This document shows positions 531 through 18,033 of a DNA stretch of 49,357 nt, piece by piece. Source of the DNA: Acidiferrobacterales bacterium (GTDB lineage: Bacteria > Pseudomonadota > Gammaproteobacteria > Acidiferrobacterales > UBA6901); assembly GCA_035256085.1 (NCBI GenBank), contig DATEYP010000046.1, positions 1 through 49,357 on the forward strand. The letters run 5' to 3'. A program made the position numbers and the translations under genes. A model generated the notes under the pieces. That model made no database searches. It was not told the origin of the DNA and saw only the letters and a program-made list of their open reading frames with translations. Every line of letters begins with the position of its first letter. Position 1 is the first letter of the stretch.

Positions 531-860
531 TTAGTTGGCGGTCCAAGTTTTTGCCTGCGTACTCTTTAGCCTCCGCTCCAGCAAGCCAAAATCACCCAGA
601 TGGGCCGTCATTAAGCTCTTCCAGAGCTTGCCGTGGTTTGGGACACTGAAATGCAGGAGTTCATGGACAATCACGTACTCTCCCAGCTTTTTGTCTAATT
701 CCAATAACTCGGCATTGAAATTGAGATTGCCGTTGGTTGAGCAGGAGGCCCACTTGTTACGCATGGGGCGGATGGCCAATGAACGCACCGTGATGTCCAG
801 CTTGACGGCCCACTCGAATACGCGGGCCTTGAATTCTCCCTTATCGCGCCAGGCACTCAT
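531..860 (-). CDS. Short M48/DUF45 (YgjP-like) zinc metallopeptidase, the common hsdR-linked partner
   Basis: HEXXH motif in context VIVHELLHFSVPNHGKLW. RNKWASCS resembles the DUF45 'rWGSCs' block. Its ATG overlaps the hsdR stop (ATGA at 857-860). Confidence 0.8.
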   Translation of the reverse strand: MSAWRDKGEFKARVFEWAVKLDITVRSLAIRPMRNKWASCSTNGNLNFNAELLELDKKLGEYVIVHELLHFSVPNHGKLWKSLMTAHLGDFGLLERRLKSTQAKTWTAN

Positions 861-3844: not shown

Positions 3845-5148
3845 CAAAAACTTTTTAACCGAAGTGTTCGCTGAATCCGGTTGCGTACCGAAAGCGATAC
3901 ACCCGCTTCTTCGGCATAATCCTCCCAGCGGGATACTGTTTCCCGCACCTCGTTGACAATGTTCTCGGCTCGCCCGCGCTTCATCGAAACGGCCTTCGCG
4001 CAGGCCTTGAAATCATCCATCGTGAAGTCATCACGCTTGCCGTTCATAGTCATCTGGTGGCTGGCCGTCCATGCGCCGGAAGGATTAAAACTGTAGATCA
4101 CGTCAAAGGCAGGCGAAAGCGACCATTTTCCGGTTTTATCCATCAGGAAAGCGATGTTTTTGACATGGTCGTCCTGATTGCGTGCGACGATGTTAAACAC
4201 CATGCGGCGGAACTGTTCCTCGATCGCGCCCATTGGCAACCCCAACTGTCGAATCACCAGCAGCGCCTGTTCATAGGCATAGGCACCCGCCATATTGAAA
4301 TCGTAATGCGCCAGCGCGCAAAGCGATTGCATGTGGAGTTTCTCGCCACCGGCAAGACGGTCAAAACGCCGCGTCATAAAATGACGCCGGCCGTTTTCCT
4401 CGAACAGCCGGCATTCGCTGATATCGATACCGCAGTCCCTGGCCATCTTGTAATAGGCGTATTCAATGACGCCATAACCTCGCGGGTCTTCGAGTTCCTT
4501 GTCCCTGTTCCCTTGGACACCGTCAAATTTCAGCAGCCAGTATTCGAAACCCTCGCCTGCCGGAATCTGGCCGGAACGGACCTCGTTGGTTGATGGACTC
4601 CAGGCAATCACCGCCTTGGCCCGGGCGCCACCGGCCGAGGTGCCGACCCGCAGGATATCGGTCAACGCCTGTTCCCGGCTTTCATCGGCAAAGGAAGCCC
4701 GAAGATCATTGCGATGGGTGAGTACTTCCGATGCCAGCTCAACCAGCTTGTCGATTTGTATCCGGCTGGCCTGCCGCGCTTTGGGCCCAGTCGCGGGCGC
4801 AAATTCCAAAGCCCCCATCCCGCGCTCGCCGGTATAGCAAAGCCGTTCGACCACATTGAACGAGTCCGGCTGCCGGCCCTGAGTGGCCAGCCAGGCATCA
4901 ATCAGTACGTGACCGAACTTGTCCGGGAGCGAGTCCGCCAGCAGTCCGGGCAGCCCGTAAAAGGTCTTTCGGGATAACTCGGGGAAGGCGTAGACGCGGT
5001 TGGAAAGCGGCATTGTGAGCGGCGAAATCTCGATGCCGCTTCTGGCAAACGACGGGTCGTACTCGAAGGCAGCCACATCCTTGCCCTCGTCCAGCAAAAC
5101 CGCACCAATCGTACGCCCCCAAAGCCTGACTTCGGCAACGGTACTCAT
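3844..5148 (-). CDS. hipA: HipA-family serine/threonine kinase toxin (type II TA)
   Basis: MSTVAEVRLWGRTIGAV... N-terminal coupling domain and C-terminal HipA kinase-like region (ARNQDDHVKNIAFL). ATGA overlap with the hipB stop at 5145-5148. Confidence 0.88.
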   Translation of the reverse strand: MSTVAEVRLWGRTIGAVLLDEGKDVAAFEYDPSFARSGIEISPLTMPLSNRVYAFPELSRKTFYGLPGLLADSLPDKFGHVLIDAWLATQGRQPDSFNVVERLCYTGERGMGALEFAPATGPKARQASRIQIDKLVELASEVLTHRNDLRASFADESREQALTDILRVGTSAGGARAKAVIAWSPSTNEVRSGQIPAGEGFEYWLLKFDGVQGNRDKELEDPRGYGVIEYAYYKMARDCGIDISECRLFEENGRRHFMTRRFDRLAGGEKLHMQSLCALAHYDFNMAGAYAYEQALLVIRQLGLPMGAIEEQFRRMVFNIVARNQDDHVKNIAFLMDKTGKWSLSPAFDVIYSFNPSGAWTASHQMTMNGKRDDFTMDDFKACAKAVSMKRGRAENIVNEVRETVSRWEDYAEEAGVSLSVRNRIQRTLRLKSF

Positions 5149-5495
5149 GTTTTGCCATCCCAGGACCACGGCTTATAGGACCGATCCGAACGGCGGCGTC
5201 TTGAGGCACGTTGCCGCACTTTTCCCTTTTGCTTTAGCAAATTCATCGGTCTCGGCCCGGCCTCGGGGATCATGCGATCCAGACCCGGCAAGAGATCCAG
5301 CACCCGAAGAATCCGGATGATGCTCGACATTTGCGCGGAGGCCCCACCTTCAACCCGCTCAACCGTCCGCTTGGCGACACCCGCCTGATCGGCCACATCC
5401 GCCTGAGTCAATTGAAGATCAAGCCGACGCCGCGCAACACGCTCGCCGATCTCGGCAAGAATAGCGTCATCTGCAAGGAGTTTTGATATCTTCAT
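5145..5495 (-). CDS. hipB: HipB-like XRE-family HTH antitoxin
   Basis: HTH segment LQLTQADVADQAGVAKRTVERVEGG sits directly upstream of, and overlaps, hipA. The ATG at 5495 is preferred over the TTG at 5504 used by the track. Confidence 0.8.
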   Translation of the reverse strand: MKISKLLADDAILAEIGERVARRRLDLQLTQADVADQAGVAKRTVERVEGGASAQMSSIIRILRVLDLLPGLDRMIPEAGPRPMNLLKQKGKVRQRASRRRRSDRSYKPWSWDGKT

Positions 5496-5536
5496 AGTCG
5501 CCAACTTTAACGATTTATATGCTAAACATTCTGATT

Positions 5537-5571: not shown

Positions 5572-5831
5572 TGAATAAGTCTAGTCGTCTATTATGGCGA
5601 ATTCTTCAAATTACTAGAAGTAATTCGCGAATAATGACGAATTATAAATTTTTAATGGTAAATTATTTACGGATGAGTTCAGATTTTTGGCATGATTCAG
5701 CAAAGTGCGCCACTTAAAGTGGCGCGCAAGTGTTTTCTACGCCCCTTCGATTCACGCGAGTTCAGACTGAATTCTTCATACCCAAATTGGGTTTGATGCT
5801 ACCCATTTTGGGTATCCGCAGTAGTCAGTCT

Positions 5832-5983: not shown

Positions 5984-6124
5984 CAGCTTTGTCACCAACA
6001 GTTTCCCAGCGATTAATCTTGTAAATTCACATATATTATATGTTTAATACTTAAAATTATTTGACAAATCGACATTATTGTACGAAATTACAATTTATTC
6101 TAATAAATAATCCGTCTTAAAGCC

Positions 6125-7381
6125 ATGCTAATTGAGTTCCGCGTCGGCAACTATCGCTCAATCCGGGACGAGCTTGTCTTGAGCCTGGTTGCATCCACGG
6201 ATAAGTCGCATCGCGAGACCCACGTGGTGCATATCGGTCCCAAGGCCATCCCGGACATGCTGCGTAGCGCTGTCTTATATGGCCCGAATGCCGGAGGAAA
6301 GTCCAACCTGGTCAACGCCGCGGCATTCATGCGCGCGGTGGTGGCCGATTCGGCCACCACCATGCAACTGGGCCAGACCTTCAATGTGCAGCCCTTTCGG
6401 CTGAACCCAAACACCGCCAAGGAGCCAACCCGCTTCGAGCTAACATTCCTTGAAGATGGAGTTCGCTATCAATACGGATTCGCGCTAACAGCAGATCGCG
6501 TAACAGAAGAATGGCTTCTGGCATATCGCACCGCCAAGCCGCAACAGTGGTTCACTCGTCACTACGACCCGGACTCAAGCCGCGATGTCTATGAGTTCGG
6601 TTCGCACCTGACCGGCCAACGCAAGCTGTGGCAGGAATCCACCCGCACCAATGCCCTCTTTCTCTCCACTGCCGTCCAACTCAACAGCGAGCAGCTGCGC
6701 CCTGTATTTGCCTGGATAGTACATAAGCTAGTCGTTTTCGGCGCCGGTGTACTTCCTCAGATTGACTTCTCCGTTGGCATGCTCCAGCAGAGCGAGGGCA
6801 AGCAGGCCATACGCGAGTTTATGGCCTCCGCTGACATCAGCATTACCGATATTGACGTAGCCCCACGCAAGGGCGTGGCACAGACATTCAACTTTGACGC
6901 CGCCACTGGCAAGTCCGATGTCCGTACCGAAGAACGTGACTTTCTGATGCCGCAGTTTCGTCACGAAACTGAACACGGCTCGGCCACCTTCGAACTCGGT
7001 GATGAATCCTTGGGCACTCAACGGCTGTTTGCATTGGCGGGACCGGTGCTGGACATTCTCAAGGCCGGGCGCATCCTGATCGTGGATGAGCTCGATAGCA
7101 GTCTGCATCCTTTGCTGGTGAGGCGACTGGTAAGTCTGTTTCACAATCCCAAGATCAACACGGCCAACGCACAGCTCGTTTTTACTACTCACGACACCAC
7201 ACTGCTCGACCCCGATCTGCTCCGCCGCGACCAGATCTGGTTTGTCGAGAAGAATCGCGAGCAGGTCACCACGCTCTACCCGTTTACTGACTTCAGCCCC
7301 CGCAAAAAGGAGGCATGGGAACGTGGTTATCTCTTGGGCCGATTCGGCGCGCTGCCTTTCTTCCGCGATCTGGTGTCGTAA
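6125..7381 (+). CDS. ABC-type AAA ATPase (AAA_15/21-like; AbiLi / RloA-like)
   Basis: Walker A YGPNAGGKSNLV, Walker B ILIVDELDSSLHP, H-loop VFTTHD. Followed 8 nt later by an RloB-family gene. Confidence 0.85.
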   Translation: MLIEFRVGNYRSIRDELVLSLVASTDKSHRETHVVHIGPKAIPDMLRSAVLYGPNAGGKSNLVNAAAFMRAVVADSATTMQLGQTFNVQPFRLNPNTAKEPTRFELTFLEDGVRYQYGFALTADRVTEEWLLAYRTAKPQQWFTRHYDPDSSRDVYEFGSHLTGQRKLWQESTRTNALFLSTAVQLNSEQLRPVFAWIVHKLVVFGAGVLPQIDFSVGMLQQSEGKQAIREFMASADISITDIDVAPRKGVAQTFNFDAATGKSDVRTEERDFLMPQFRHETEHGSATFELGDESLGTQRLFALAGPVLDILKAGRILIVDELDSSLHPLLVRRLVSLFHNPKINTANAQLVFTTHDTTLLDPDLLRRDQIWFVEKNREQVTTLYPFTDFSPRKKEAWERGYLLGRFGALPFFRDLVS

Positions 7382-7389
7382 GAAACCCT

Positions 7390-8054
7390 ATGGGGCGCGA
7401 TAATCAGCCCAAGGAACGCCAGGCTCGGGCACTGGCGCGCAAGAAAGCCAACCGCGCCAGCTACGAACGCATCCTGATTGTCAGCGAAGGCGAAAAAACG
7501 GAACCGTTGTACTTCGAAGAAATTTGCCAACACTACCGGCTGCACACGGCCAATATCCGCATGATGCCAAGCGCCTATGGCACCACGCCCCAGCAGGTGG
7601 TGGATTTCGCCAGAGACGAGTGCCTGAAAACGCGGGAGTGGGAACATGTGTTTTGTGTTTTTTACGCGACGACCACCCCAGGGCCAACTTTGATAACGCC
7701 ATGGCGAGCACTGCCGCTCTGGACAAGAAACACAGGAATGAGCTTAAACAGCCCATTCGCTTCACCGCTATTCCATCCATCCCCTGCTTCGAGTTATGGC
7801 TGTTATTGCATTTCGAGCGTATTACCCGCGAGTGTCATCGCAATGAGGTCTATAACCTTCTGCGACAGCCCGGCCGTCTGCCAGGATACGATAAAAGCCA
7901 GGGCGGTCACTTTGCCAGAACCCGCCACCTGCTCGACACGGCCTATGGGAACGCGGCAACACTGACTGCGGAACGGAAGCGCCATGGTAACGAAAATCCG
8001 TTTACCGCCGTAGACACACTGGTCAAGTTGCTGACGGGTTTGAAACCCGATTAA
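7390..8054 (+). pseudogene. rloB: RloB / AbiLii-family gene split by a 1-nt frameshift at a T6 run
   Basis: The N-terminal frame gives ILIVSEGEKTEPLYFEE...EWEHVFCVF. The C-terminal family sequence (RDDHPRANFDNA...IPSIPCFELWLLLHFE) continues in another frame after ttttttt-minus-one at 7658-7663. Confidence 0.8.
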
Positions 8055-8212
8055 TCCAACGCCGAGCGGGTGCGTTTCTCGGGAGTAGCGCCATCACGGT
8101 CGAAGCCACGTCGCTTCTCCGTATTAGCACGCGGCACAAAGCGCCAGCCGATCTCCTGCGCATAGGCATGGATGCGGGACTGGACTGTTTTATGTTCAGT
8201 GGGGATAGGCAT
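8051..8212 (-). pseudogene. hsdR: 53-codon 5' remnant of a second hsdR allele
   Basis: MPIPTEHKTVQSRIHAYAQEIGWRFVPRANTEKRRGFDRDGATPEKRTRSALD* against intact HsdR MKPSEHKTVQARILAYAQEIGWRFVPRAEAEMRRGF. It starts 3 nt after the STAND gene stop, and its stop overlaps the rloB stop at TTAA 8051-8054. Confidence 0.8.
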
Positions 8213-8215
8213 GTA

Positions 8216-11200
8216 TTACCTTTCAAATTCCTCAAGACCAGATTTCACGTCATTGATGCCTTCGATGCACATCTGGTCGATCAGATCAAGGCAGCGTGGC
8301 GCCCATTCATCGCGCTGGTGCTGTTGGTAGGTACGGAAAATCAGTTTCGCCACTGTGTGGACATCACCACCTCGCTGGGTGCGGATGTCCTTCGCTTCAT
8401 CGCTAAAACGTGCGAGGAATTTTTCGCAAACGACACAGGTAATACCTGGCAGTCGTCTCAGCGATTCTTCCAGTACGTGCAGAATCGGAAACGAGTCCTC
8501 CTGGTAGGCCGCGCTATCGCAAAATGCGGTGATGAGAGACTCGTACGATTCGAGCGGTTCTTTCTCGAGATAACGAAAACAAGACGCCGATGCACGGCGC
8601 ACTTCCGGAGTGTCGTCATTAAAGAGCTTCAACAAATGTTTTTCGCACCATTCCCGACACTCTGCGGAGGCGATATTACAAGCTGCGACGATGGCGACGC
8701 CTTTCCGTTGCGATGCATTTCCAGCCATTGCTTCTTCCACCAAATCAGCCGCAGAATGGCCATAGAGCACCGCGAGACTGGCAAACCGTGCGCCTGCGTT
8801 GTTTGCCTCTTCATCCGTTGAGCGAAGTAACTTTTCAACATATGGGCGCATTTCGCTGTAGTTCTGCCGGAGCCCATGGTAAATGAAGTGATCAGCGTAT
8901 TGGGTTGCCAATAAGCGGTCATCAGCAGAGGCAAGCGACTTGAAGAGGGAAATTGCCAACGGTGTATCGTGGCGAGCTACCGCCAACAGAGTTGAAGCGG
9001 CGCACGAACGCACTGAGACGCTCTTATCGTTCACCAAATGTTCCTGCGTAGTACGGAAGCGTTCGATGTAACTGGCATCCTTCAGAATAAGATCGCGAAT
9101 TGCCTCCGCTGCACGTCCACGTGTCGTGTTGATACCGTGCGTGAGGATGTCGCCTCCGTTGTAGGACTGACCACTTGTTGCCTCGACGTTCCATAACTCC
9201 TTTTCTGGATCTGGATGCTCAGTTGCTAACCAATCGAGCATCTGCACGGCTTCATCTGAAAGCGGCTCTTTAATACTACCGAGCAGATCGGCGATTGCCC
9301 TGCCGCACTCCTCGCGCGATTCACGATAAGCCTTCTGACAGACGGCGAGCTTCAGGTCAGTAGCTGCTGCCGCATCTTTGAGACCGTCCAGCGTCCGCTC
9401 GATATAGGCGGGATTAGTGCCCGGTGGAAATCGCAGGCTCAAGCGGGCAAACCGTTCCGGTTCATTGCGAACATACTCGCGCAGCATTCCAGCAAGCTCC
9501 CGCGCACCGCCTTTTTCTGGGTCGTCCCAACGATGAATTCGTTCCTCCGTGTGATATTTCGCAATCGCCTTAAGCCATTGTTCATCCGTCATCATATCTG
9601 CGTGTCCCTTCTCAATTGGCGATCCGACTGTGAACGTACGGATTCCACGAGGGGCGGCATCAGGTTCCCCAAATTTTCGTTCCAGTTCCTTGAACCGAGA
9701 TTGCGCATTCTTGCTCCGGAGTTCTGGTGGTATCGCTGAGAGCAACGTGTGTTGTGCGCGACCAGCGATCTTGTGCCCTCCGGCGGTGCGTTCGTATTTG
9801 GGCCTATACGCCAGGATCGCTGTTTCCAGCCGTGTCAGATTACCCACGGAACACGATGGAGCGATGGCCTGGATGAGTTGCATGGCGACCCAATATGGAC
9901 TATCTGCGTAGCCACAGTCGAATCGCCACGTCTCGGCACAGAGTAGCGTGGCGGCCTCGTCTGCAAAGTGAGAGGCTCCGCTTGTATACAGATTTAGAAG
10001 AAGAAAATTCGCGATATAAGTATCACGCCTGCGAAGCTCAGCAATGACAGGGCCAAGGGTGTCGGGTTGGTCTTTGGCCGCATGCCCTAACGCAGTAATC
10101 AACGAATTCAGGCAGGCGCTGTCAATCGTGTCGTATTCTTTCTCTTGCAAAAGAAGCCATATTGCACCACGTAACGGCGGTTCTGAGTTGGTTTTGTAAA
10201 CAGCTGCATCTGTAATTTCGAGAACAACTGGCAGAACGTACTGCACAAAAACAGCGGGCGCCTTTTCCGCAGCTTTGAGGAAATACCTGGAGCCAAAGGC
10301 ATCATGGCTGAATATGTCTCTCCACGGAACCCTTCCGTTCTCGTCTTTTTGTTGCTGAATAAGCGTTGAGCGCCTTTTTAACCAATGGGTGATAACTTCT
10401 GGAATCCATTCGGGCTTAGCCTCGGCTAAGCCATGGAGCATGCTCCAGAATGTGCTGTTAACAGCGATAGGCCCCCGTGCCTCATCAAGTGTTCCATCGT
10501 CAATCAGCCGCAAAAACAACTCAAAGAAACGTCGGCTACTCTCGTGGTCCGCCCATTCCACTACATGGCGTAGCCGTAGTGTCCAATCGCCCTCTTTCCC
10601 AACATATGGCTCCAGCAATTCGGCAACTCGATCACCAAATTGCCGCTGGTGGGACCGTAGGTAGTTCACAGCAACATTGACAAGCCATTCGTTCTTAGAA
10701 GCCAGCCACCCCGCTATGAGCCCACGCTTATCAGCAAGATGAAACCAAGTTGGTGAAACAAAGAAGTGTTGCCAAACGAGGGTAGTAAATTTGTCACGCT
10801 TACGCTGATCATATGCGAAGGCTTCCAGTTGCATATTTAACCATGGCTCCAGCACTGCCCATTCATCATCGCCAGGACCTTCCACGCTCACGAGCATTGC
10901 GAGAATTAGGTCTTTGATGTGAGCGCGAACGCGGCTGTCAGTAAGCAAAGTGCGAAGCTCGGAGCAATAACGCAAACGGTCTGCGTCGCGAAGATAGGCG
11001 AGAACCTGCCTAACCTGGGCGCGACGGAAGAGATGCTGCTCCGATGTAGTCAGGAACTCCGCAAGCGGGTGGTCTTTCGTGACAAACGCGCGGGCGAAAC
11101 AGTAGTCGAAAAAACTCTCGTGGCCAAATCCGTAACGTTTGCCATCGAAAGTGAGCACGCCTTCAGATGCCATCTGCGCAACGTAGTCAGTTGCAAACGG

Positions 11201-12757
11201 ATCGAGTTTCTCACGCGGCACAGAGAGTTGCTGAGTGCGAGTCATCTCCTCGCATAGCAGTTCGATGATCAGTGCCCATTGGTCGGTCAACAGAACGGCA
11301 CGCCCGTTGACAGCCCGGCGCTTCGTATCCCAGTAGCGGTCGAAGAGCTCTTTTGCTGTGTTGAACTTCGGAGCGGTCGCCGGGTTGAACTCAGCGTCGA
11401 GAAATAGGGAAAGGTTCTGTGGCAGACGCAGCAACTCCATTTGGCGCGGCTGAAGTATTTCGATACGAAAACCTGCGGCAGAAAATACCGCTTTCACTTC
11501 CTCGGGGGTGAACTCGGAAACTTCGACCTTGGCATGTTGCTCAGACACCATCCGACGGAGCCGATGATCATTTTCCCAATCAAACGCCCGGCAGACGACT
11601 ACCACATGCAGCTTGAGTCTTCCGCGAAGTCCGCGAGCTTCAGCAAGTAACCCCTCCACCGCATCGAAAAGCTCCGCACTCCGGCCGGAAGTTGTGCTGA
11701 CCGCATCCAATTGATCCACAACCAAAACAGCCTCCCTACCGGCGGCTGCCGCGGCCAATACGAGCGCAGGAGATTCTTCCAAACCAAGTTGCTGACCAAG
11801 ATCAGCGGTTGCCGAAACCGGTACGAGGCGATCGGCACGAAACACTAAAACCGGGGTTCCGCGGTTCCGCAGGCTTTCCACGAATTCGACGACGCAGCCG
11901 GTTTTACCAGTGCCCGCTTTACCAGTAAGTACGAAATCACCTCCGAGCGGCTCACTATCGACTTGACTGAGAAGCGCCTGCGTAGCGGTGCGGGAGATCA
12001 GAGACTGCCGAATGAGCTTCTTTCGAGCACCTTCAAGATAGTTCTTGGTTACCTCGGCAATGAGCGGACCTGCCGAATCCAGCTTTGCCAGCCGGCGAAG
12101 CTTGTATCCACGCGTCGCCATACGCTGCACAAGCAAATCTCGTGTTAGCGTCTGATGGACGGAATCCTCTGCAATGCGCCGTAACTCGGCGCTCGCCGAT
12201 TGCGGATCGCTGAGAAATAATGCACTTAGCCCCCACCGCACTTGCTCGTCGAGGCTTGCCTGGTCCATCGTGCGAACTTCAATGCGTCGCAGAACGTCGT
12301 ATGCCGACGCCGCGTTGATGTTGCTCCAGTACTTTCTCAGCCTCTCGAAATTAGCTTCTTGGACCTTGGCCGCGAGAAACTGGGTCTCAAACTCCGATGC
12401 CGATTCCGCCTGCCGTGCGCGCTCGCTGAGTTCTCGCAGTTCTGGTGCATCGCTGCTGGAAACGAACACAAACCGCTCGCTGTTTCCCGATAGTTCGGCA
12501 GATATAGCTTGCAGGAGGTTCACATCGGATGCAGCCAGAGACGCGAGGGTCCATTTGCCGTCTGGGTGGCTGCGCTTTGCCTGGTGCAGTTCGCGCGTTC
12601 CTCCGCTCGTTACCACGAACTCGGCCTTCGTGACTCCGGGGTCTTCAATGCGGATGCTCTCCACCTGCCCGTGCAGCATTCGCACGAACTGCGAAACCGT
12701 CCACGACGATTCGTAGCGGTTACCAAATTTGTCAGATGACCCGCCAGGAAGCGGCAT
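8216..12757 (-). CDS. 1513-aa tripartite protein: Cap4/DUF4297-like PD-(D/E)xK nuclease, STAND (NACHT-like) P-loop NTPase and a long helical/HEAT-like repeat region
   Basis: N-terminus GGSSDKFGNRYE...IRIED...ELHQAKR. Walker A LTGKAGTGKTG (nt 11900-11929), Walker B AVLVVDQLDA, then HVVVVCR. C-terminal HEAT-like units DKSVSVRSCAASTLLAV and DDTPEVRRASASCFRYL. Confidence 0.85.
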   Translation of the reverse strand: MPLPGGSSDKFGNRYESSWTVSQFVRMLHGQVESIRIEDPGVTKAEFVVTSGGTRELHQAKRSHPDGKWTLASLAASDVNLLQAISAELSGNSERFVFVSSSDAPELRELSERARQAESASEFETQFLAAKVQEANFERLRKYWSNINAASAYDVLRRIEVRTMDQASLDEQVRWGLSALFLSDPQSASAELRRIAEDSVHQTLTRDLLVQRMATRGYKLRRLAKLDSAGPLIAEVTKNYLEGARKKLIRQSLISRTATQALLSQVDSEPLGGDFVLTGKAGTGKTGCVVEFVESLRNRGTPVLVFRADRLVPVSATADLGQQLGLEESPALVLAAAAAGREAVLVVDQLDAVSTTSGRSAELFDAVEGLLAEARGLRGRLKLHVVVVCRAFDWENDHRLRRMVSEQHAKVEVSEFTPEEVKAVFSAAGFRIEILQPRQMELLRLPQNLSLFLDAEFNPATAPKFNTAKELFDRYWDTKRRAVNGRAVLLTDQWALIIELLCEEMTRTQQLSVPREKLDPFATDYVAQMASEGVLTFDGKRYGFGHESFFDYCFARAFVTKDHPLAEFLTTSEQHLFRRAQVRQVLAYLRDADRLRYCSELRTLLTDSRVRAHIKDLILAMLVSVEGPGDDEWAVLEPWLNMQLEAFAYDQRKRDKFTTLVWQHFFVSPTWFHLADKRGLIAGWLASKNEWLVNVAVNYLRSHQRQFGDRVAELLEPYVGKEGDWTLRLRHVVEWADHESSRRFFELFLRLIDDGTLDEARGPIAVNSTFWSMLHGLAEAKPEWIPEVITHWLKRRSTLIQQQKDENGRVPWRDIFSHDAFGSRYFLKAAEKAPAVFVQYVLPVVLEITDAAVYKTNSEPPLRGAIWLLLQEKEYDTIDSACLNSLITALGHAAKDQPDTLGPVIAELRRRDTYIANFLLLNLYTSGASHFADEAATLLCAETWRFDCGYADSPYWVAMQLIQAIAPSCSVGNLTRLETAILAYRPKYERTAGGHKIAGRAQHTLLSAIPPELRSKNAQSRFKELERKFGEPDAAPRGIRTFTVGSPIEKGHADMMTDEQWLKAIAKYHTEERIHRWDDPEKGGARELAGMLREYVRNEPERFARLSLRFPPGTNPAYIERTLDGLKDAAAATDLKLAVCQKAYRESREECGRAIADLLGSIKEPLSDEAVQMLDWLATEHPDPEKELWNVEATSGQSYNGGDILTHGINTTRGRAAEAIRDLILKDASYIERFRTTQEHLVNDKSVSVRSCAASTLLAVARHDTPLAISLFKSLASADDRLLATQYADHFIYHGLRQNYSEMRPYVEKLLRSTDEEANNAGARFASLAVLYGHSAADLVEEAMAGNASQRKGVAIVAACNIASAECREWCEKHLLKLFNDDTPEVRRASASCFRYLEKEPLESYESLITAFCDSAAYQEDSFPILHVLEESLRRLPGITCVVCEKFLARFSDEAKDIRTQRGGDVHTVAKLIFRTYQQHQRDEWAPRCLDLIDQMCIEGINDVKSGLEEFER

Positions 12758-12760
12758 GGC

Positions 12761-13981
12761 TTACTCCGTGGTAAGCGCTGCCAGTTCTGGCAAGTCGAGG
12801 TCGTGGACACGAATCTGCGCCGTCATCAACTGGTGCAGCAGGGTGCGGAAAAGGTCCGTTAAAGACTGCTTTTTATGTTCATGGATCATCACTTTCTGTT
12901 CCGCCGTGTCCAAGCAGTCAGCGATTTCCATCTGAACGTCTAGCTTCGGATAGAACACCGGCATTGAGCCCAAGACTGTGTTATTAAGGTTAGGCATTAT
13001 TGCGCCAGCGGCGTGGCTGTTCAGCCAAGCGATCACACCAGAAGTTGAGCACAGATAGGAGAGGAAACGGTTGTCTATATGATTTTGGCGCACACGTGCG
13101 AGGAAACAGCCAGTTCCACACAACCACCCCTCCTCATTCTTCGTTACCATTCCGTGCCGTCCAATCTCCCCTCGACGCGCAAAAAGTATGTCACCTGCCT
13201 CCAATTGATGTCGCTTCAGCCGAGCCGCAGTTTCGGAGCTTACTCGTGGCACATCTTCATGATTGATCCTATTTCCCCAAAGATGGGTCGGATTCACAAC
13301 ACCAACGCCTTCCTCCAGATAATCGTGCTTGTGGAGCTGGCTTCCGAAGGGACCGGTTTGTAAAAAGCCATAAGGCAAGCAAGCGAGGTTGCCGAGCGTG
13401 GTTGCTTCCCAACTCTCCGGCACGGGGCCGATTTCGGTTTGTTTTTGGGGTTCGCCGCGTAGGCCTTGGGTGAAGAGTTGGTGGAGGAGCGTCTTTTTCA
13501 GTTCGGCGGTGAGCTGTAGCAGCCGCTCCTGCTGCTCGATCGATCGCTGCACCACGCCCAACACGCCAGCGATCTTGCGCTGTTCGTCCTTATCGGGGCG
13601 AGGAACCGTTTTCTCTTTCAGGACTGTGAAGTGACGGTTGTATCCGCGATTTGGGATGTCGAGACTCAGTAGCGCGTAGTAGAAAAACTTTGGATCGAAA
13701 AGGTCTTCCTTCGGCTTCAGAACTTTTGTGCCGTCTGCTCCAAGAATGAATGGGAAATCCACATACTTCACGCAGCGTGTGTGATCCCCAAAAATCACCA
13801 TCGGAAGATCATCGCGGATAACCCGTTCCTCCACATCCGAGTAGCCGGCTATGAACGCTTGGCCTTGATCGACCACCGGGAAGCGACCGAAAGGCTGGAT
13901 GTCGGCCGAAAGTACTTGGTTCTCTCGCCCAACCTTCGTTTTGCGAACCGCTTCGGGAAATTCGATTGATGGCCAAGACAT
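12761..13981 (-). CDS. hsdS: Type I R-M specificity subunit
   Basis: Two target-recognition halves, each followed by the conserved HsdS helix (KKTLLHQLFTQGLRGEP and LFRTLLHQLMTAQIRV). Sits 3 nt from both neighbouring genes. Confidence 0.9.
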   Translation of the reverse strand: MSWPSIEFPEAVRKTKVGRENQVLSADIQPFGRFPVVDQGQAFIAGYSDVEERVIRDDLPMVIFGDHTRCVKYVDFPFILGADGTKVLKPKEDLFDPKFFYYALLSLDIPNRGYNRHFTVLKEKTVPRPDKDEQRKIAGVLGVVQRSIEQQERLLQLTAELKKTLLHQLFTQGLRGEPQKQTEIGPVPESWEATTLGNLACLPYGFLQTGPFGSQLHKHDYLEEGVGVVNPTHLWGNRINHEDVPRVSSETAARLKRHQLEAGDILFARRGEIGRHGMVTKNEEGWLCGTGCFLARVRQNHIDNRFLSYLCSTSGVIAWLNSHAAGAIMPNLNNTVLGSMPVFYPKLDVQMEIADCLDTAEQKVMIHEHKKQSLTDLFRTLLHQLMTAQIRVHDLDLPELAALTTE

Positions 13982-13984
13982 GGG

Positions 13985-15094
13985 CTATACCACCACTTCT
14001 TTTACATACTGCACCCGCTGTTCCCGCACCACCAACGCCCGCTCCCGTTCCAACTCTTCGCGCAGGGCCTCCTCCGTCGGCAGATAGAGCATGTATTTCG
14101 ACGCGAACAACTGTCGGTTCTCGTTGAGCACGGAGTATTTCACCACGGTGTGGTCTTTTTCCGTGCACAGGATGATGCCGACGGTGGGATTGTCGTCCGC
14201 GCCTTTTACCGTGTCCTCGAACAGCCGGACGTACATGTCCATCTGGCCGATGTCCTGGTGGGTCAGTTCGCCGGTTTTGAGATCGACTAGGACGAAGCAT
14301 TTGAGGATGTAGTTGTAGAACACCAGGTCAACGAAGAAGTCCTTGGTCTCCGTTGAGATGCGCTGCTGGCGGGCGACAAAGGCGAAGCCCTTGCCGAGTT
14401 CGAGCATGAAGGTCTGGAGTTTGCCGATGATGGCCTGTTCGAGTTCCGCCTCGCGGAATTCGTGGGCATCCGGGATGCCGAGGAACTCCAGGACATAGGG
14501 GTCTTTGATGAAGTCCTGGGGCGCGGGGGCAAGCGGCGCGGTCTTTTGCTGCATTTCTTCCGTGACCGCCGCCTTGTCGCGGCTCATCAGCAGGCGTTCG
14601 TAGTAGAGGGAGTTGATCTGCCTTTCCAGGGCGCGGGTACTCCAGTTCTGGCTGGCTGCTTCGGTGACGTAATAGGCTCGGGCGGCCTCGTTTTCAACAC
14701 GAATCAGTGCTTTATAGTGGCTCCACGTCAATTCGCTCCGCAGTGCGGAGCGAATTGAGAAGCAGGAATAAAATTGACGCATGTTGCGAAGACTTTGCTC
14801 CGAAAACCCCGTCCCGAACTCCGCGGTCAGGCGGATGGACAGGTTCCTGAGCAGCGCCGCACCGTACTCCGCCCGCTCTTCGCCGCGTTGCTCCTCCTCG
14901 ACTATTTTCCGCCCGACGTTCCAGTAGGCCTCGACCATGGCGAAGTTGACGGCCCGGTAGGCATTGGCGCGGGCAGCGCGGAGGATTTCGGCGATGGATT
15001 GGTATAAATCTCTCCGCGTCGCGGAGAGATTCTGGTCTCCGCGCGCAGGTCTGCCGCCTGATTTTGGTTTGGCTACGGCTTTCTTCCTTTTCAT
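13985..15094 (-). CDS. YhcG/DUF1016 PDDEXK-nuclease family protein
   Basis: YRAVNFAMVEAYWNVGRKIVEEEQ... and FVDLVFYNYILKCFVLVDLKTGELTHQDIGQMDMYV are typical DUF1016 blocks. The start is taken at MKRKK (15094), because the 31 upstream codons of the tracked ORF are REP sequence. Confidence 0.85.
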   Translation of the reverse strand: MKRKKAVAKPKSGGRPARGDQNLSATRRDLYQSIAEILRAARANAYRAVNFAMVEAYWNVGRKIVEEEQRGEERAEYGAALLRNLSIRLTAEFGTGFSEQSLRNMRQFYSCFSIRSALRSELTWSHYKALIRVENEAARAYYVTEAASQNWSTRALERQINSLYYERLLMSRDKAAVTEEMQQKTAPLAPAPQDFIKDPYVLEFLGIPDAHEFREAELEQAIIGKLQTFMLELGKGFAFVARQQRISTETKDFFVDLVFYNYILKCFVLVDLKTGELTHQDIGQMDMYVRLFEDTVKGADDNPTVGIILCTEKDHTVVKYSVLNENRQLFASKYMLYLPTEEALREELERERALVVREQRVQYVKEVVV

Positions 15095-15134
15095 GTTTTT
15101 CCCTGAGTCATGTGCCGATGCTTTGATGTAGATA

Positions 15135-15176
15135 CCCCTCACCCCAACCCTCTCCCGCAAGGGGAGAGGGAGCGAG
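15135..15176. repeat. REP family A copy in the hsdM-yhcG spacer
   Basis: The sequence is cccctcaccccaaccctctcccgcaaggggagagggagcgag. Confidence 0.8.
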
Positions 15177-15215
15177 AAATCCAGCAACGCGTGGCTTGAT
15201 ACGGATCAGACGCTT

Positions 15216-16847
15216 TCATACGCCAAGCCTCGCCAATATCAGCCGCAGGGCCCGATTCGTTTCCCTGGCCTCTTCTTCCAGGACGTTCAATTCTTCCACG
15301 ATTTCGGCAATGGGGCGATATTCCTCGCCCTCGCCGGTGTGGATGTAGCGGCTCGGCGAGATGTTGTAGTCGTTCTTGGCGATCTCCTCGCGGGTGACGA
15401 TGCGCGAATACTTGCCCACTTCCTTCCACGCGGTGAAGGTGTCGGCGATGCGGGCGATGGCGTCTTCGGGGATGTAGTTCTTGGGATCGCCCTTCACGAA
15501 CTCGCGGCTGGCGTTGAGCAGGAACAGCTTGCCCTGGCGCTCCTTGGGCTTCGAATTGTTCAGCACGATGACGATGCCCGGCGCGCCGGTGTTGTAGAAC
15601 AGGTTTTCCGGCAGGTAGAGCACGCCTTCGATGAGGTCTTGCTCCACGAACCAGCGGCGCACGTCCTTTTCCTTGTTGGTGTTGGCGTTGCCGCTGCCGC
15701 GCGAGGCGGCGCCGGTGTCGAGCACCACGGCGGCGCGGCCCTTGTCGTTGAGGCTGGCGAGGATGTGCTGCATCCAGCCCCAGTCGGCCTTGCTGCCGGG
15801 GAAGCCCGCGCCTTTGGGGAAGCGGTCGAGCTCGTCGGCGTCGTAGTCCTTCTCCTTGAACTCAGTCTGGTTCCACATGGGATTGGCCACCACGCGGTCG
15901 AAGGTCTGGAGGCGGTTGCCCTTGCGAAACTTCGGCTTGCGGAAGGTGTCGCCGATTTGAATCTCGCCTTCCATGTCGTGGATGATCATGTTCATGTTGG
16001 CCATGGCCCAGGTGCCAGGCTCGTTTTCTTGACCGTAGAGTTTGATCGGTGCGTACTGCCCCTCACCCCCGCCCTCTCCCCGCTTCGCGGGGCGAGGGAG
16101 TTTTTTGGCGGTGCGCATCTTCTCGTCCAAGACCAAGCGACACTTGATGAGCAGGCCGGCGGAACCGCAGCAGGGGTCGTACACGTCCATGCCCGGTTCG
16201 GTGTCCATGATGCGCGCCATGACGAGACCGACCTCGGCGGGGGTGTAGAACTCGCCCGCGCTCTGGCCCGAGCCTTCCGCGAACTTGCGGATGAGGTATT
16301 CGTAGCTGCGGCCGATGATGTCCGGCTCCACATCTTTGAGGCCAAGGTGCTTGGCGCTGATGGCCTCGATGAGGCTGGAGAGGCGGTCGTCATCAATGTC
16401 ACGCTGGCCATGGGTGGTGGCGTTGAAGTCCACGCGATCGATGATGCCCTTGAGCAGCGGGTTGGCGTCGGCGATGGCGCGCAGGTGGGTGGTGAGCTGC
16501 TCGCCGATCTTGTCCGAGAGCGTGCGGATAACCGACCAAACGGCGTCGTCCGGGTTCTTGGGCTCCAACGGCAGGTAGAAGCGCACCAGTTTCTTGTCGC
16601 GCTTCACCAGCTTGAAGGCCTTGGCGCGCGAGCCGACCTCTTGGGCGATACGGTTCAGCTCGTCATCGAAGACATCGCACAGACGTTTGGTGAAAATCAG
16701 CGGGAGGATGAACTCCTTGTATTTCGCGGCGTCCTTCGCGCCGCGAATGGAACAGGCGGCGTCCCAGATCCAGGATTCGAGGGATTTTTCTGTCTCGGCG
16801 GCCTTGGTCGGCACCTGCTGTCTCTTGGTATTGATCACTGCGGCCAC
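15216..16847 (-). CDS. hsdM: Type I R-M DNA methyltransferase subunit
   Basis: N-terminal HsdM domain, AdoMet motif DPCCGSAGLL and catalytic VVANPMWNQ. GTG start preceded by GGGAGGGGAG. Confidence 0.93.
   Translation of the reverse strand: MAAVINTKRQQVPTKAAETEKSLESWIWDAACSIRGAKDAAKYKEFILPLIFTKRLCDVFDDELNRIAQEVGSRAKAFKLVKRDKKLVRFYLPLEPKNPDDAVWSVIRTLSDKIGEQLTTHLRAIADANPLLKGIIDRVDFNATTHGQRDIDDDRLSSLIEAISAKHLGLKDVEPDIIGRSYEYLIRKFAEGSGQSAGEFYTPAEVGLVMARIMDTEPGMDVYDPCCGSAGLLIKCRLVLDEKMRTAKKLPRPAKRGEGGGEGQYAPIKLYGQENEPGTWAMANMNMIIHDMEGEIQIGDTFRKPKFRKGNRLQTFDRVVANPMWNQTEFKEKDYDADELDRFPKGAGFPGSKADWGWMQHILASLNDKGRAAVVLDTGAASRGSGNANTNKEKDVRRWFVEQDLIEGVLYLPENLFYNTGAPGIVIVLNNSKPKERQGKLFLLNASREFVKGDPKNYIPEDAIARIADTFTAWKEVGKYSRIVTREEIAKNDYNISPSRYIHTGEGEEYRPIAEIVEELNVLEEEARETNRALRLILARLGV
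16058..16100. repeat. REP family A copy inside the hsdM coding frame
   Basis: cccctcacccccgccctctccccgcttcgcggggcgagggag is translated in frame as LPRPAKRGEGGGEG, between the AdoMet motif and LYGQE. Confidence 0.75.
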
Positions 16848-16881: not shown

Positions 16882-17337
16882 TCAAGGCGATACCGGCTTC
16901 ACATCCCCCAACCACTGCACCTCATAAGGACCTTTCGCCACCTGCCCAACCAGCTTCGCGTCGGCGGTAATCAATGGAAGCCGTAGTTGGGCCGCGGCGG
17001 CGATGTAGCAGGCATCATAGGCCGTGATCCGATGTTTCAATGCAATGTCCAGAGCATCGTCGGCCAGAACCTGGGTAGGAATCGCCGTCAGGCCAAGGCC
17101 CGTTAGATCGCGCAGATGTTCCTGGGCGGCTTTTGCCGGGTAGGCGGATCGCTGCACCCACTTCCAGAACACGTTCGCGCACTCGATAAAAAATAAGTCG
17201 GGCACAATCAGCTCGGCGCCATTTTCCGAGGCGAAGCGCGCGAATACCGTCTGTGCCTCGGCAGAAAGCGCCTCGGGCACAAAAATCTTTACCGCGACAC
17301 TGGCATCCACCACCGCCCGGAACGGGGCCGGACTCAC
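16882..17337 (-). CDS. vapC: PIN-domain toxin (VapC family)
   Basis: Acidic PIN residues in VVDASV, LFFIE, AYDACY and ITAD. GTGA overlap with the upstream antitoxin gene. Confidence 0.85.
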   Translation of the reverse strand: MSPAPFRAVVDASVAVKIFVPEALSAEAQTVFARFASENGAELIVPDLFFIECANVFWKWVQRSAYPAKAAQEHLRDLTGLGLTAIPTQVLADDALDIALKHRITAYDACYIAAAAQLRLPLITADAKLVGQVAKGPYEVQWLGDVKPVSP

Positions 17338-17582
17338 CGGCTGCGGTCCTCGCGGAGCAGTTCGGCCGAATCCTTCCAGCCACGGGGCAGCTCGATCTTC
17401 TGCGCCCGCTGCCGGATGCGCTCAATGACCTCGGCCGCACCCCGGCGTGCCTCGCGCGCCTGAAGACCTTGGTTTAAAAGCTGGATGACTTCGGCGGTTA
17501 CCGAGCGGTTTTCTTCTTCCGCGAGCTTCTGGATGCGCTTGTAGAGCTTCTCGGGGACGTTGCGGACATGCAGGGTGGCCAT
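17334..17582 (-). CDS. vapB: RHH/FitA-like antitoxin (VapB-type)
   Basis: MATLHVRNVPEKLYKRIQKLAEEENRSVTAEV is a typical ribbon-helix-helix antitoxin N-terminus. It overlaps the vapC start. Confidence 0.8.
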   Translation of the reverse strand: MATLHVRNVPEKLYKRIQKLAEEENRSVTAEVIQLLNQGLQAREARRGAAEVIERIRQRAQKIELPRGWKDSAELLREDRSR

Positions 17583-17957: not shown

Positions 17958-18033
17958 TGGTGGGCCGTGCAAGATTCGAACTTGCGACCAACTGGTTAAA
18001 AGCCAGCTGCTCTACCGACTGAGCTAACGGCCC
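17958..18033 (-). tRNA. tRNA-Lys (anticodon UUU)
   Basis: The reverse complement reads GGGCCGTTAGCTCAGTCGGTAGAGCAGCTGGCTTTTAACCAGTTGGTCGCAAGTTCGAATCTTGCACGGCCCACCA. That is 76 nt with anticodon loop CTTTTAA and encoded CCA, close to E. coli tRNA-Lys. Confidence 0.95.

Follow-up and report, generated by a model that had tools for sequence, protein, structure and literature searches.

Type I restriction-modification (R-M) loci can harbour additional defence genes. PrrC in EcoprrI is a precedent for such embedding (10.1101/2024.01.29.577857), the TgvAB genes of Vibrio VPI-2 are embedded in a type I R-M operon (PMC11411939), and Campylobacter has its rlo genes. A 'guilt-by-embedding' survey uses embedding in defence loci to find candidates, and genes lying within BREX, DISARM and type I R-M loci were the source of the PADLOC PDC models, PDC-S02 and PDC-M54A among them (10.1101/2024.01.29.577857); embedding in type I R-M is already used systematically for predicting new systems. 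Here we analyze an hsd locus that carries a large STAND protein gene and a DUF1016 (yhcG) gene, in a stretch of 49,357 nucleotides (nt) from an Acidiferrobacterales bacterium (contig DATEYP010000046.1, assembly GCA_035256085.1). This whole stretch is called the window.

For the large STAND protein, the described counterpart is SeAvs7 of Salmonella enterica, whose apo form is PDB entry 9n00 (Lee et al., bioRxiv 10.64898/2026.01.04.697583; also PDB 9N01 and 9YIX). In SeAvs7, the phage major capsid protein and host EF-Tu are bound by the helical sensor, which triggers assembly into tetramers and DNA cleavage by the N-terminal Cap4 nuclease; as a single gene, SeAvs7 protects E. coli (bioRxiv 10.64898/2026.01.04.697583). 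The main text of that paper does not mention hsd embedding of Avs7 ('hsd' and 'operon' gave no match), and accessions of family members were not found in two of its supplementary files. The association of DUF1016 with R-M was noted in 2012 (PMC3424549) and again in 2023 (PMC9881135). When one representative of PDC-S02 was expressed by itself, it did not protect against T4, T5 or T7 (10.1101/2024.09.26.614923).

Like the PrrC/EcoprrI, TgvAB and Campylobacter rlo loci, the window has extra defence genes among its hsd genes, on the same strand and with tight junctions, and here as there different systems can fill one place in related loci. Unlike them, it is unusually densely packed: as many as four passenger modules (DUF1016, Avs7-like, AbiL and HipBA) join the VapBC pair that heads the backbone, and scars of the insertions are kept. 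PrrC is almost exclusively embedded and functionally tied to R-M, whereas the accessory genes of the window occur mostly elsewhere. The locus is real but ordinary: defence cargo embedded in an hsd locus is a known pattern, and the embedding itself is established. What is new here is an Avs7-like clade in a crowded, well-preserved hsd locus. We consider it quite likely that the region is a defence island founded on a single, widely transferred family of type I R-M systems with the backbone vapBC-hsdM-hsdS-cargo-hsdR-ygjP, assembled by four layered acquisitions, with the passengers acting as parallel layers. Gene content, scars, junctions and the swapping of cargo between relatives can be read directly from the DNA.

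Results

The hsd backbone and its putative cargo slot

Direct reading placed every gene named in an earlier sequence-only reading of this DNA on the minus strand. The hsdM gene (15216-16847) has a GTG start with GGGAGGGG just before it and encodes the Pfam domains HsdM_N (5.9e-21) and N6_Mtase (6.4e-90). The hsdS gene (12761-13981) has Methylase_S matches in two stretches and encodes two target-recognition domains; these domains are variable, the central and C-terminal regions of HsdS are conserved, and hsdS DNA matching relatives is limited to 13576-13407 and 12852-12782. The intact hsdR (857-3844, minus strand) encodes 995 amino acids (aa) with HSDR_N, SWI2_SNF2, ResIII and T1R_D3 domains and belongs to a family with >7,000 matches. 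The stop codon of hsdR is overlapped (ATGA) by a ygjP-like metallopeptidase-domain gene (531-860, minus strand; Pfam YgjP-like, 1.1e-24), which also follows hsdR in four related loci (L001, L164, L165 and L166; loci used in the comparison are labelled L001, L002 and so on) and forms the conserved end of the locus in this hsd family. The backbone is headed by genes for a vapB-like antitoxin (FitA-like ribbon-helix-helix; 17334-17582; Pfam PF22513, E=2.7e-9) and a vapC-like PIN toxin (16882-17337; Pfam PIN, E=3.8e-12), the latter 34 nt upstream of hsdM; L164 has the same vapBC-hsdM arrangement at 88.8% nucleotide identity. The type I R-M set thus appears to be complete, since HsdM, HsdS and a full-length HsdR are encoded, HsdR probably in a different transcription unit.

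The plain form of the locus is seen in L001 and L002, with the order hsdM-hsdS-avs7-hsdR-ygjP, TAAatcATG between hsdS and avs7, and 21 nt between avs7 and hsdR; identity to the window is 80% for the Avs7-like protein and 86% for HsdM and HsdR. L015, of the window's hsd family, has the order hsdM-hsdS-avs7-hsdR with spacers of 8 nt and 17 nt. In L003, an intact avs7 gene comes after a 36-codon relic of the hsdS 3' end and TAAtcgATG, alongside a truncated hsdM and a fragmented hsdR. Two loci from Latescibacterota (L021 and L042), the hsd family of which is only 27% identical to that of the window, carry hsdM-DUF1016-hsdS-avs7 followed by other genes, including one for an ABC ATPase; after this cargo comes a full hsdR in L042, and the hsdR start lies at the locus end in L021. 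Gene order therefore recurs in other genomes, as hsdM-DUF1016-hsdS-STAND in L021 and L042 and as hsdM-hsdS-STAND-hsdR in L001 and L015, and the objection that it might be conserved nowhere else, which the sequence-only reading had raised against itself, falls away.

The closest backbones hold other cargo. L164 and L165, both with HsdR 94% identical to that of the window, read vapB-vapC-hsdM-hsdS-(115 aa)-(1233 aa)-relic-(rloB<-AAA_21)-hsdR-ygjP and hsdM-hsdS-(Cap4 nuclease, 184 aa, AAA_23)-35-codon relic-(rloB<-AAA_21)-hsdR-ygjP, respectively. L166 and L167 (HsdR 90%) read hipBA-hsdM-hsdS-Mrr-TIR-TIR-AAA_14-hsdR-ygjP, with hipBA upstream of hsdM. The hsdS 3' end (12852-12782) matches relatives at 86-90%, and the cargo between shares nothing. 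Because the closest backbones carry Lamassu or unclassified genes where the Avs7-like gene sits, the interval from the hsdS 3' end to the hsdR start appears to be a slot whose cargo is exchanged between loci. A STAND gene hard-wired into the operon, as had been proposed from the sequence of the window, is thus not supported.

The 115-aa and 1233-aa genes that fill the slot of L164 (3663-7764) have no PADLOC match and no Pfam family on record; by their place in the slot, they are candidate genes of a defence system not yet described. The Lamassu-like set of L165 (1950-5685) consists of a Cap4 nuclease (409 aa), a 184-aa protein and an AAA_23/SMC-like protein (652 aa), and the 35-codon hsdR relic lies 2 nt after it. 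A gene for a same-strand ABC-type ATPase of ~570-590 aa was seen after the Avs7-like gene in L013, L017, L022, L023, L031, L035 and L065 (~14570-16480), and one of 458 aa in L042 (14720-16096). The scanned ATPases (L013, L022 and L042) gave PADLOC NsnB/AriA/AbiLi/GajA-like or Pfam AAA_15/AAA_21 matches. In the window an AbiLi ATPase gene also adjoins the Avs7-like gene, but is convergent with it.

Insertion scars at the 5' end of hsdR

The sequence-only reading had proposed a five-gene operon ending in an hsdR' gene. Alignment showed that this fifth 'gene' (8051-8212) is a relic of 53 codons corresponding to the first ~155 nt of hsdR; it runs into the stop codon of a convergent gene, and the first 101 nt of the intact hsdR are 79% identical to it. 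Since it spans only 53 codons, the unit comprises four genes plus a relic. The intact hsdR lies 4.2 kb downstream of the relic, beyond a convergent AbiL module and a hipBA pair, apparently in a separate hipBA-hsdR-ygjP unit.

The AbiL module is on the plus strand. Its ABC-type ATPase gene, abiLi/rloA (6125-7381; Pfam AAA_21), matches PADLOC AbiLi at E=4.5e-98 and is intact, with a product 97.6% identical to that of L164. The RloB-type gene abiLii/rloB (7390-8054; PADLOC AbiLii) starts 8 nt later and converges with the upstream operon. As with the original Campylobacter rloA/rloB, the module stands inside an hsd locus; it differs in that its orientation is opposite to the hsd genes and that abiLii is frameshifted in the window genome. 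The segment comprising relic and abiL (8200-5986) corresponds to L164 7794-10010 at 95.9% nucleotide identity and to L165 at 94.4%. Because these loci share both parts at 94-96%, the relic can be read as an old scar of the AbiL insertion common to L164 and L165. Simple duplication and an assembly artefact were rejected as origins of hsdR', given that the two copies are only 79% identical and that two other loci carry the relic at ~96% identity.

Relative to L164 and L165, abiLii has a 1-nt deletion near 7664, and tblastn with their RloB proteins splits into two frames. The frameshift is identical in contigs of two independent metagenome assemblies, so that an assembly error was rejected as far as contigs allow; abiLii is probably a pseudogene and the AbiL module inactive here.

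Beyond abiL lies a second, minute scar, GTGACAAAGC (5986-5995, minus strand), which aligns with the first 10 nt of an hsdR of the L164/L165 type. After it comes a 2.1-kb hipBA segment, and then hsdR resumes at its second codon, which marks GTGACAAAGC as the apparent insertion point of the hipBA segment. This segment encodes, on the minus strand, a hipB-like helix-turn-helix antitoxin/repressor (5145-5504; Pfam HTH_31/HTH_3) and a hipA-like kinase toxin (3844-5169; Pfam HipA_C, 2.1e-52, and Couple_hipA), and the TGA stop of hipA overlaps the ATG of hsdR (TGATG). Because convergent abiL and hipBA separate the relic from the real gene, hsdR is most likely expressed from a hipB-hipA-hsdR-ygjP unit and probably not together with hsdM, yhcG, hsdS and the avs7-like gene.

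Upstream of hipB, a non-coding stretch of ~120 nt (5707-5827) is 72% identical to L166 7537-7647, which in L166 comes after another hsdR 5' relic and before a different cargo gene (AAA_14/DUF4143). Cassettes that insert ahead of hsdR may have this stretch in common, as a promoter or junction element. Relics of the hsdM 5' end (residues 20-59, 85-88% identical) lie upstream of DUF1016 in L087 (6687-6806) and L089 (6264-6383); L089 has a full hsdM downstream of the relic, a duplication scar like hsdR', but at hsdM. The relics in L166, L087 and L089 indicate that scars are a general by-product of such insertions.

The Avs7-like STAND protein

In line with the STAND-controlled nuclease of the sequence-only reading, the 1513-aa product of 8216-12757 (minus strand) contains a STAND NTPase preceded by a nuclease-like domain. 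Its family has >1,000 members of 1504-1557 aa in many phyla, chiefly from environmental metagenome-assembled genomes. When the family profile was compared with PDB, 9n00_A (a 1523-aa 'AAA family ATPase') was matched along the whole length (E=5.6e-35), with collinear stretches at 59-649/60-644, 1000-1110/980-1088 and 1206-1360/1198-1356; the N-terminal 620 aa matched 9n00 with E=4.4e-22 (hmmsearch vs PDB).

The domain order, with an N-terminal Cap4-type nuclease-like region, a P-loop STAND NTPase and a putative C-terminal, HEAT-type alpha-solenoid sensor, corresponds to that of SeAvs7, and the length is similar (1513 vs 1523 aa). The NTPase residues are K285 in Walker A, D348/D351 in Walker B, R390 and H546; the family-invariant K285, D348, R390 and H546 match K292, D358, R395 and H545 of SeAvs7, so that the Walker A Lys, the Walker B Asp, the Arg after strand 4 and the His of the winged-helix domain are kept. 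AlphaFold models had pLDDT values of 85.5 (residues 1-620) and 87.1 (residues 601-1513). In Foldseek searches, the top matches of the N-terminal model were Avs4, NLRP3, NOD2 and NLRC4, and the C-terminal model gave generic HEAT/karyopherin solenoid matches only. Judged by these profile and residue correspondences, we are confident in assigning the protein as Avs7-like, a distant full-length homologue of SeAvs7. It differs from SeAvs7 in that the two are very distant, with low identity, two short significant sensor stretches only and no Pfam Cap4 match, and in that its family comes mainly from environmental phyla and is often embedded after hsdS.

The N-terminal domain is probably a nuclease. 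Residues 11-225 align to the Cap4 region of SeAvs7, the N-terminus has a conserved E38...E46...Q59-x-K61 pattern, and there is a weak PADLOC match to LmuA (E=1.9e-4). The sequence-only reading had called this domain and the DUF1016 protein two unrelated nucleases; however, DUF1016 is a PD-(D/E)xK nuclease family, and the Cap4 region to which the STAND N-terminus aligns is PD-(D/E)xK as well, so the two would be different families of one superfamily.

The best PADLOC match of the large protein was PDC-M54A (E=5.5e-22). This model is of similar size (1621 profile positions) but matches residues 89-566 only, and it therefore represents a neighbouring family, not the same one. Literature searches found no paper on PDC-M54.

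The DUF1016 gene and REP elements

The yhcG/DUF1016 gene (13985-15094, minus strand) encodes a PD-(D/E)xK nuclease-like protein with the Pfam domains DUF1016_N (1.7e-45, 154.9 bits) and YhcG_C (1.2e-58, 197.9 bits), well above the cut-offs of about 33 bits, and matches PADLOC PDC-S02 with E=8e-150. The catalytic D...DxK residues D256, D271 and K273 are invariant in 15 homologues. Comparison of backbones showed that yhcG is an insertion relative to L001, L164, L165 and L166. Within the window's hsd family, the order hsdM-DUF1016-hsdS is also found in L091, L099, L100, L105 and L106, usually with ATGA overlaps, which bears out the earlier remark that DUF1016 recurs in type I loci; in other hsd families, DUF1016 stands before hsdM or between hsdS and hsdR. 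A family search gave at least 8,000 matches. In a sample of 80 metagenomic loci of close relatives with 116 neighbours, R-M genes were the commonest neighbours (N6_Mtase, Methylase_S and ResIII, 8/116 each), and most neighbours were other genes. The gene thus resembles PDC-S02 in its domains, its catalytic residues and its place between hsdM and hsdS as in several relatives; it differs in that a repetitive extragenic palindromic (REP) element stands between it and hsdM. As an anti-phage nuclease, the protein is a candidate.

The hsdM-yhcG spacer had been described as longer than the other junctions, at 121 nt, through a REP insertion. This was correct: the hsdM stop is at 15216 and the yhcG ATG at 15094, and the REP explanation of the extra length holds because relatives with hsdM-yhcG show a 4-nt overlap (ATGA). 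The REP-type palindrome (15133-15172), CCCTCTCCC-N5-GGGAGAGGG, forms a hairpin without a T-run. Its repeat family has 6 copies in the window (3702, 15148, 21015, 27337, 34268 and 49022) vs 0 expected. Folding of the REP spacer and of the gap between the relic and abiLii gave z-scores near -0.9, with no special structure besides the REP hairpin.

REP-like sequence was also seen within genes. A 45-nt in-frame insertion in hsdM (16056-16100) adds 15 aa (LPRPAKRGEGGGEGQ) relative to HsdM of L001, and a REP-derived in-frame insertion in hsdR (3702-3735) encodes the peptide PPHPSPLPEGEG, replacing a short segment of the HsdR N-terminus. HsdR relatives are 983 to 1001 aa long, their length varies at the REP site, and L166 carries a REP match there. 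These insertions are a modestly interesting side observation.

Relation of the accessory genes to the R-M system

We examined the 10-kb neighbourhoods of 81 distinct loci with homologues of the Avs7-like gene, and scanned the upstream neighbours in 72 of them. An R-M methyltransferase gene (type I, type ISP or type IIG) was present within 10 kb in ~24 of the 81 loci; in 59 there was no hsd or methyltransferase gene within that distance, and the neighbours were otherwise varied. HsdS was the commonest single upstream neighbour (8/72 loci). Neither the Avs7-like nor the DUF1016 family shows the obligate R-M embedding of PrrC. With R-M genes in the minority among DUF1016 neighbours as well, both accessory genes are mobile and lie mostly outside hsd loci, and an operon 'hard-wired' in the sense of the sequence-only reading is not supported. 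Its notion of a multi-layer system stands in so far as the layers are co-located and co-transferred; a single hard-wired machine is not borne out. Because most relatives have no nearby R-M gene, the L003 homologue is intact beside a decayed hsd locus and SeAvs7 works alone, the Avs7-like protein is most likely an autonomous passenger.

Several results weigh against an autonomous nuclease with a capsid sensor. The sensor match to SeAvs7 is weak (two stretches, E=8e-6 and 0.005), and the ligand may be something other than the capsid protein. The entry 9n00 was not among the Foldseek matches of the sensor model, the library used being without it, and the two sensor folds are therefore not directly comparable. 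Pfam Cap4_nuclease misses the N-terminus, the first 233 residues of which have no Pfam match, and hhalign of the family N-terminus against a Lamassu Cap4 protein was not significant (E=0.05). Further points concern the tie to R-M. Both accessory families have R-M genes as their most frequent neighbours, and TAA-NNN-ATG after hsdS is kept in close relatives, which makes some functional tie to R-M conceivable; the inactivity of PDC-S02 alone would fit a need for partners. The operon structure, too, is a deduction from gene layout.

Such a tie would be closest if the DUF1016 and/or Avs7-like nucleases were restrained or cued by HsdM2S (or R2M2S) and fired once a phage disables restriction, as in PrrC, with the stop-NNN-ATG junctions setting the stoichiometry of the complex. 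We regard this as unlikely. The neighbour counts, the hsdS/avs7 junction conserved in L001, L002 and L003, the hsdM-DUF1016-hsdS order with 4-nt overlaps in five loci of the same hsd family (L091, L099, L100, L105 and L106), the single test in which PDC-S02 alone was inactive and the EcoprrI precedent are what it would explain. It sits poorly with the 59 of 81 Avs7-like loci that lack hsd and methyltransferase genes within 10 kb, with the intact L003 homologue next to a decayed R-M locus, with SeAvs7 acting alone on a capsid protein trigger, with unrelated systems occupying the slot in sister loci and with the many different positions and contexts of DUF1016. A variant, in which the embedding is functional, the accessory nucleases dock on or are gated by HsdM2S as a PrrC-style guard and the hsdS and hsdR ends serve as a dedicated cassette-exchange site, seems to us slightly less probable again.

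Equally doubtful is that the locus is decaying, with restriction lost, methylation and passengers remaining, and the tidy junctions being historical leftovers. The hsdR' relic, the real frameshift in abiLii and the REP-derived in-frame insertions in HsdM and HsdR would be expected of such a locus. However, hsdR is complete, encoding 995 aa with nuclease and helicase motifs and 94% identity to relatives, and is coupled to hipA and ygjP; both REP insertions are in frame, and at the HsdR site the relatives themselves vary in length (983-1001 aa, with the REP match of L166 there); and hsdM, hsdS, yhcG and avs7 are full length with family-invariant residues.

Gene junctions

Direct reading of the minus strand verified the three 3-nt junctions that had been described: TAG ccc ATG between yhcG and hsdS (13987-13979), TAA gcc ATG between hsdS and the avs7-like gene (12763-12755) and TAA tac ATG between the avs7-like gene and hsdR' (8218-8210). 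Related loci provided 86 pairs of neighbouring genes on one strand; three of these had a +3 spacer, two of the three being the hsdS/avs7 junction, and the commonest tight junction was the 4-nt overlap (17 pairs). Three of four junctions at +3 are thus unusual by number, yet the observation is post hoc. The junction into hsdR' cannot be selected for coupling, since hsdR' is a dead relic. At hsdS/avs7, TAA-NNN-ATG occurs in L001, L002 and L003, and the spacer is 8 nt in L015; this junction is the sole inherited one of the three. At each junction, the last codons of the upstream gene contain a purine-rich, Shine-Dalgarno-like stretch, which has the look of ordinary translational coupling. We take the identity of the three spacers to be largely a coincidence on ordinary tight operon packing. 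That it is a designed signal, such as a shared re-initiation element giving one co-translated unit, is very improbable, for although +3 is rare and recurs here next to purine-rich stretches, one junction leads to the dead 53-codon relic, separate insertion events gave rise to the three, relatives show -4, +2, +8, +21 or +30 at equivalent places, and neither the NNN nor the stop codons are alike.

The genes vapBC-hsdM-yhcG-hsdS-avs7 are on one strand with short spacers. A terminator scan found no terminator-like site at their junctions, and a promoter scan found nothing at the junctions, promoter-like matches being at chance level. From this layout, we infer that they form one transcript with translationally coupled genes, and the vapBC pair (16882-17582) may head this first unit. 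The co-translated unit of the sequence-only reading survives to this extent, as a colinear and tight set of genes, but hsdR is not part of it.

Island context

GC content is 0.50-0.60 over the hsd island (about 1-17,500/17,600) vs 0.63-0.66 in the rest of the window. The low-GC island is bordered by a tRNA-Lys(UUU) gene (17958-18033, minus strand; ARAGORN). No integrase gene was seen next to tRNA-Lys. Just downstream of it, at the island edge, lies a 26-nt inverted repeat (17801-17826/17907-17932), the arms of which are 96% complementary and 80 nt apart. Host REP copies occur inside the low-GC island, which suggests that the island has been resident for a long time. A run search found the window sequence solely in metagenomic short-read DNA runs.

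Discussion

The comparisons are consistent with an assembly of the locus in four acquisitions. In the first, DUF1016/yhcG would have been placed between hsdM and hsdS, with a host REP element arriving later in front of it. The second would have brought an Avs7-like STAND gene into the cargo slot between hsdS and hsdR. In the third, the AbiL module (abiLi/abiLii) would have entered in opposite orientation at the hsdR 5' end, leaving the 155-nt hsdR' scar, and in the fourth, the hipBA pair would have entered exactly at the hsdR start, leaving the 10-nt scar and the hipA stop fused to the hsdR ATG. Cargo may enter by recombination between hsd loci, with the conserved hsdS 3' and hsdR 5' ends as homology anchors.

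By homology with SeAvs7, the Avs7-like protein would act alone. Its helical sensor would bind a conserved phage structural protein (in SeAvs7, the major capsid protein), the NTPase would exchange nucleotide and oligomerise, and the assembled Cap4-type nuclease would cut DNA, so that infection is aborted. Expression of hsdR would now come from the hipBA unit. R-M, DUF1016 and the Avs7-like protein, joined by AbiL and HipBA if these are still active, would then be parallel layers with shared regulation and joint transfer; they are unlikely to be parts of one physical machine.

Of most use for further work are the series of cargo slots, the insertion scars and the cargo genes of L164 (115 aa and 1233 aa). 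The scars at the hsdR 5' end show how cargo entered. The relatives form a natural series, in which one hsd backbone carries Avs7-like, Lamassu, TIR/Mrr or unclassified cargo in the same slot, and this series offers a direct way of testing how far embedded systems depend on their host R-M. At the level of the protein family, the window and its relatives add a large environmental clade to the recently described Avs7 proteins.

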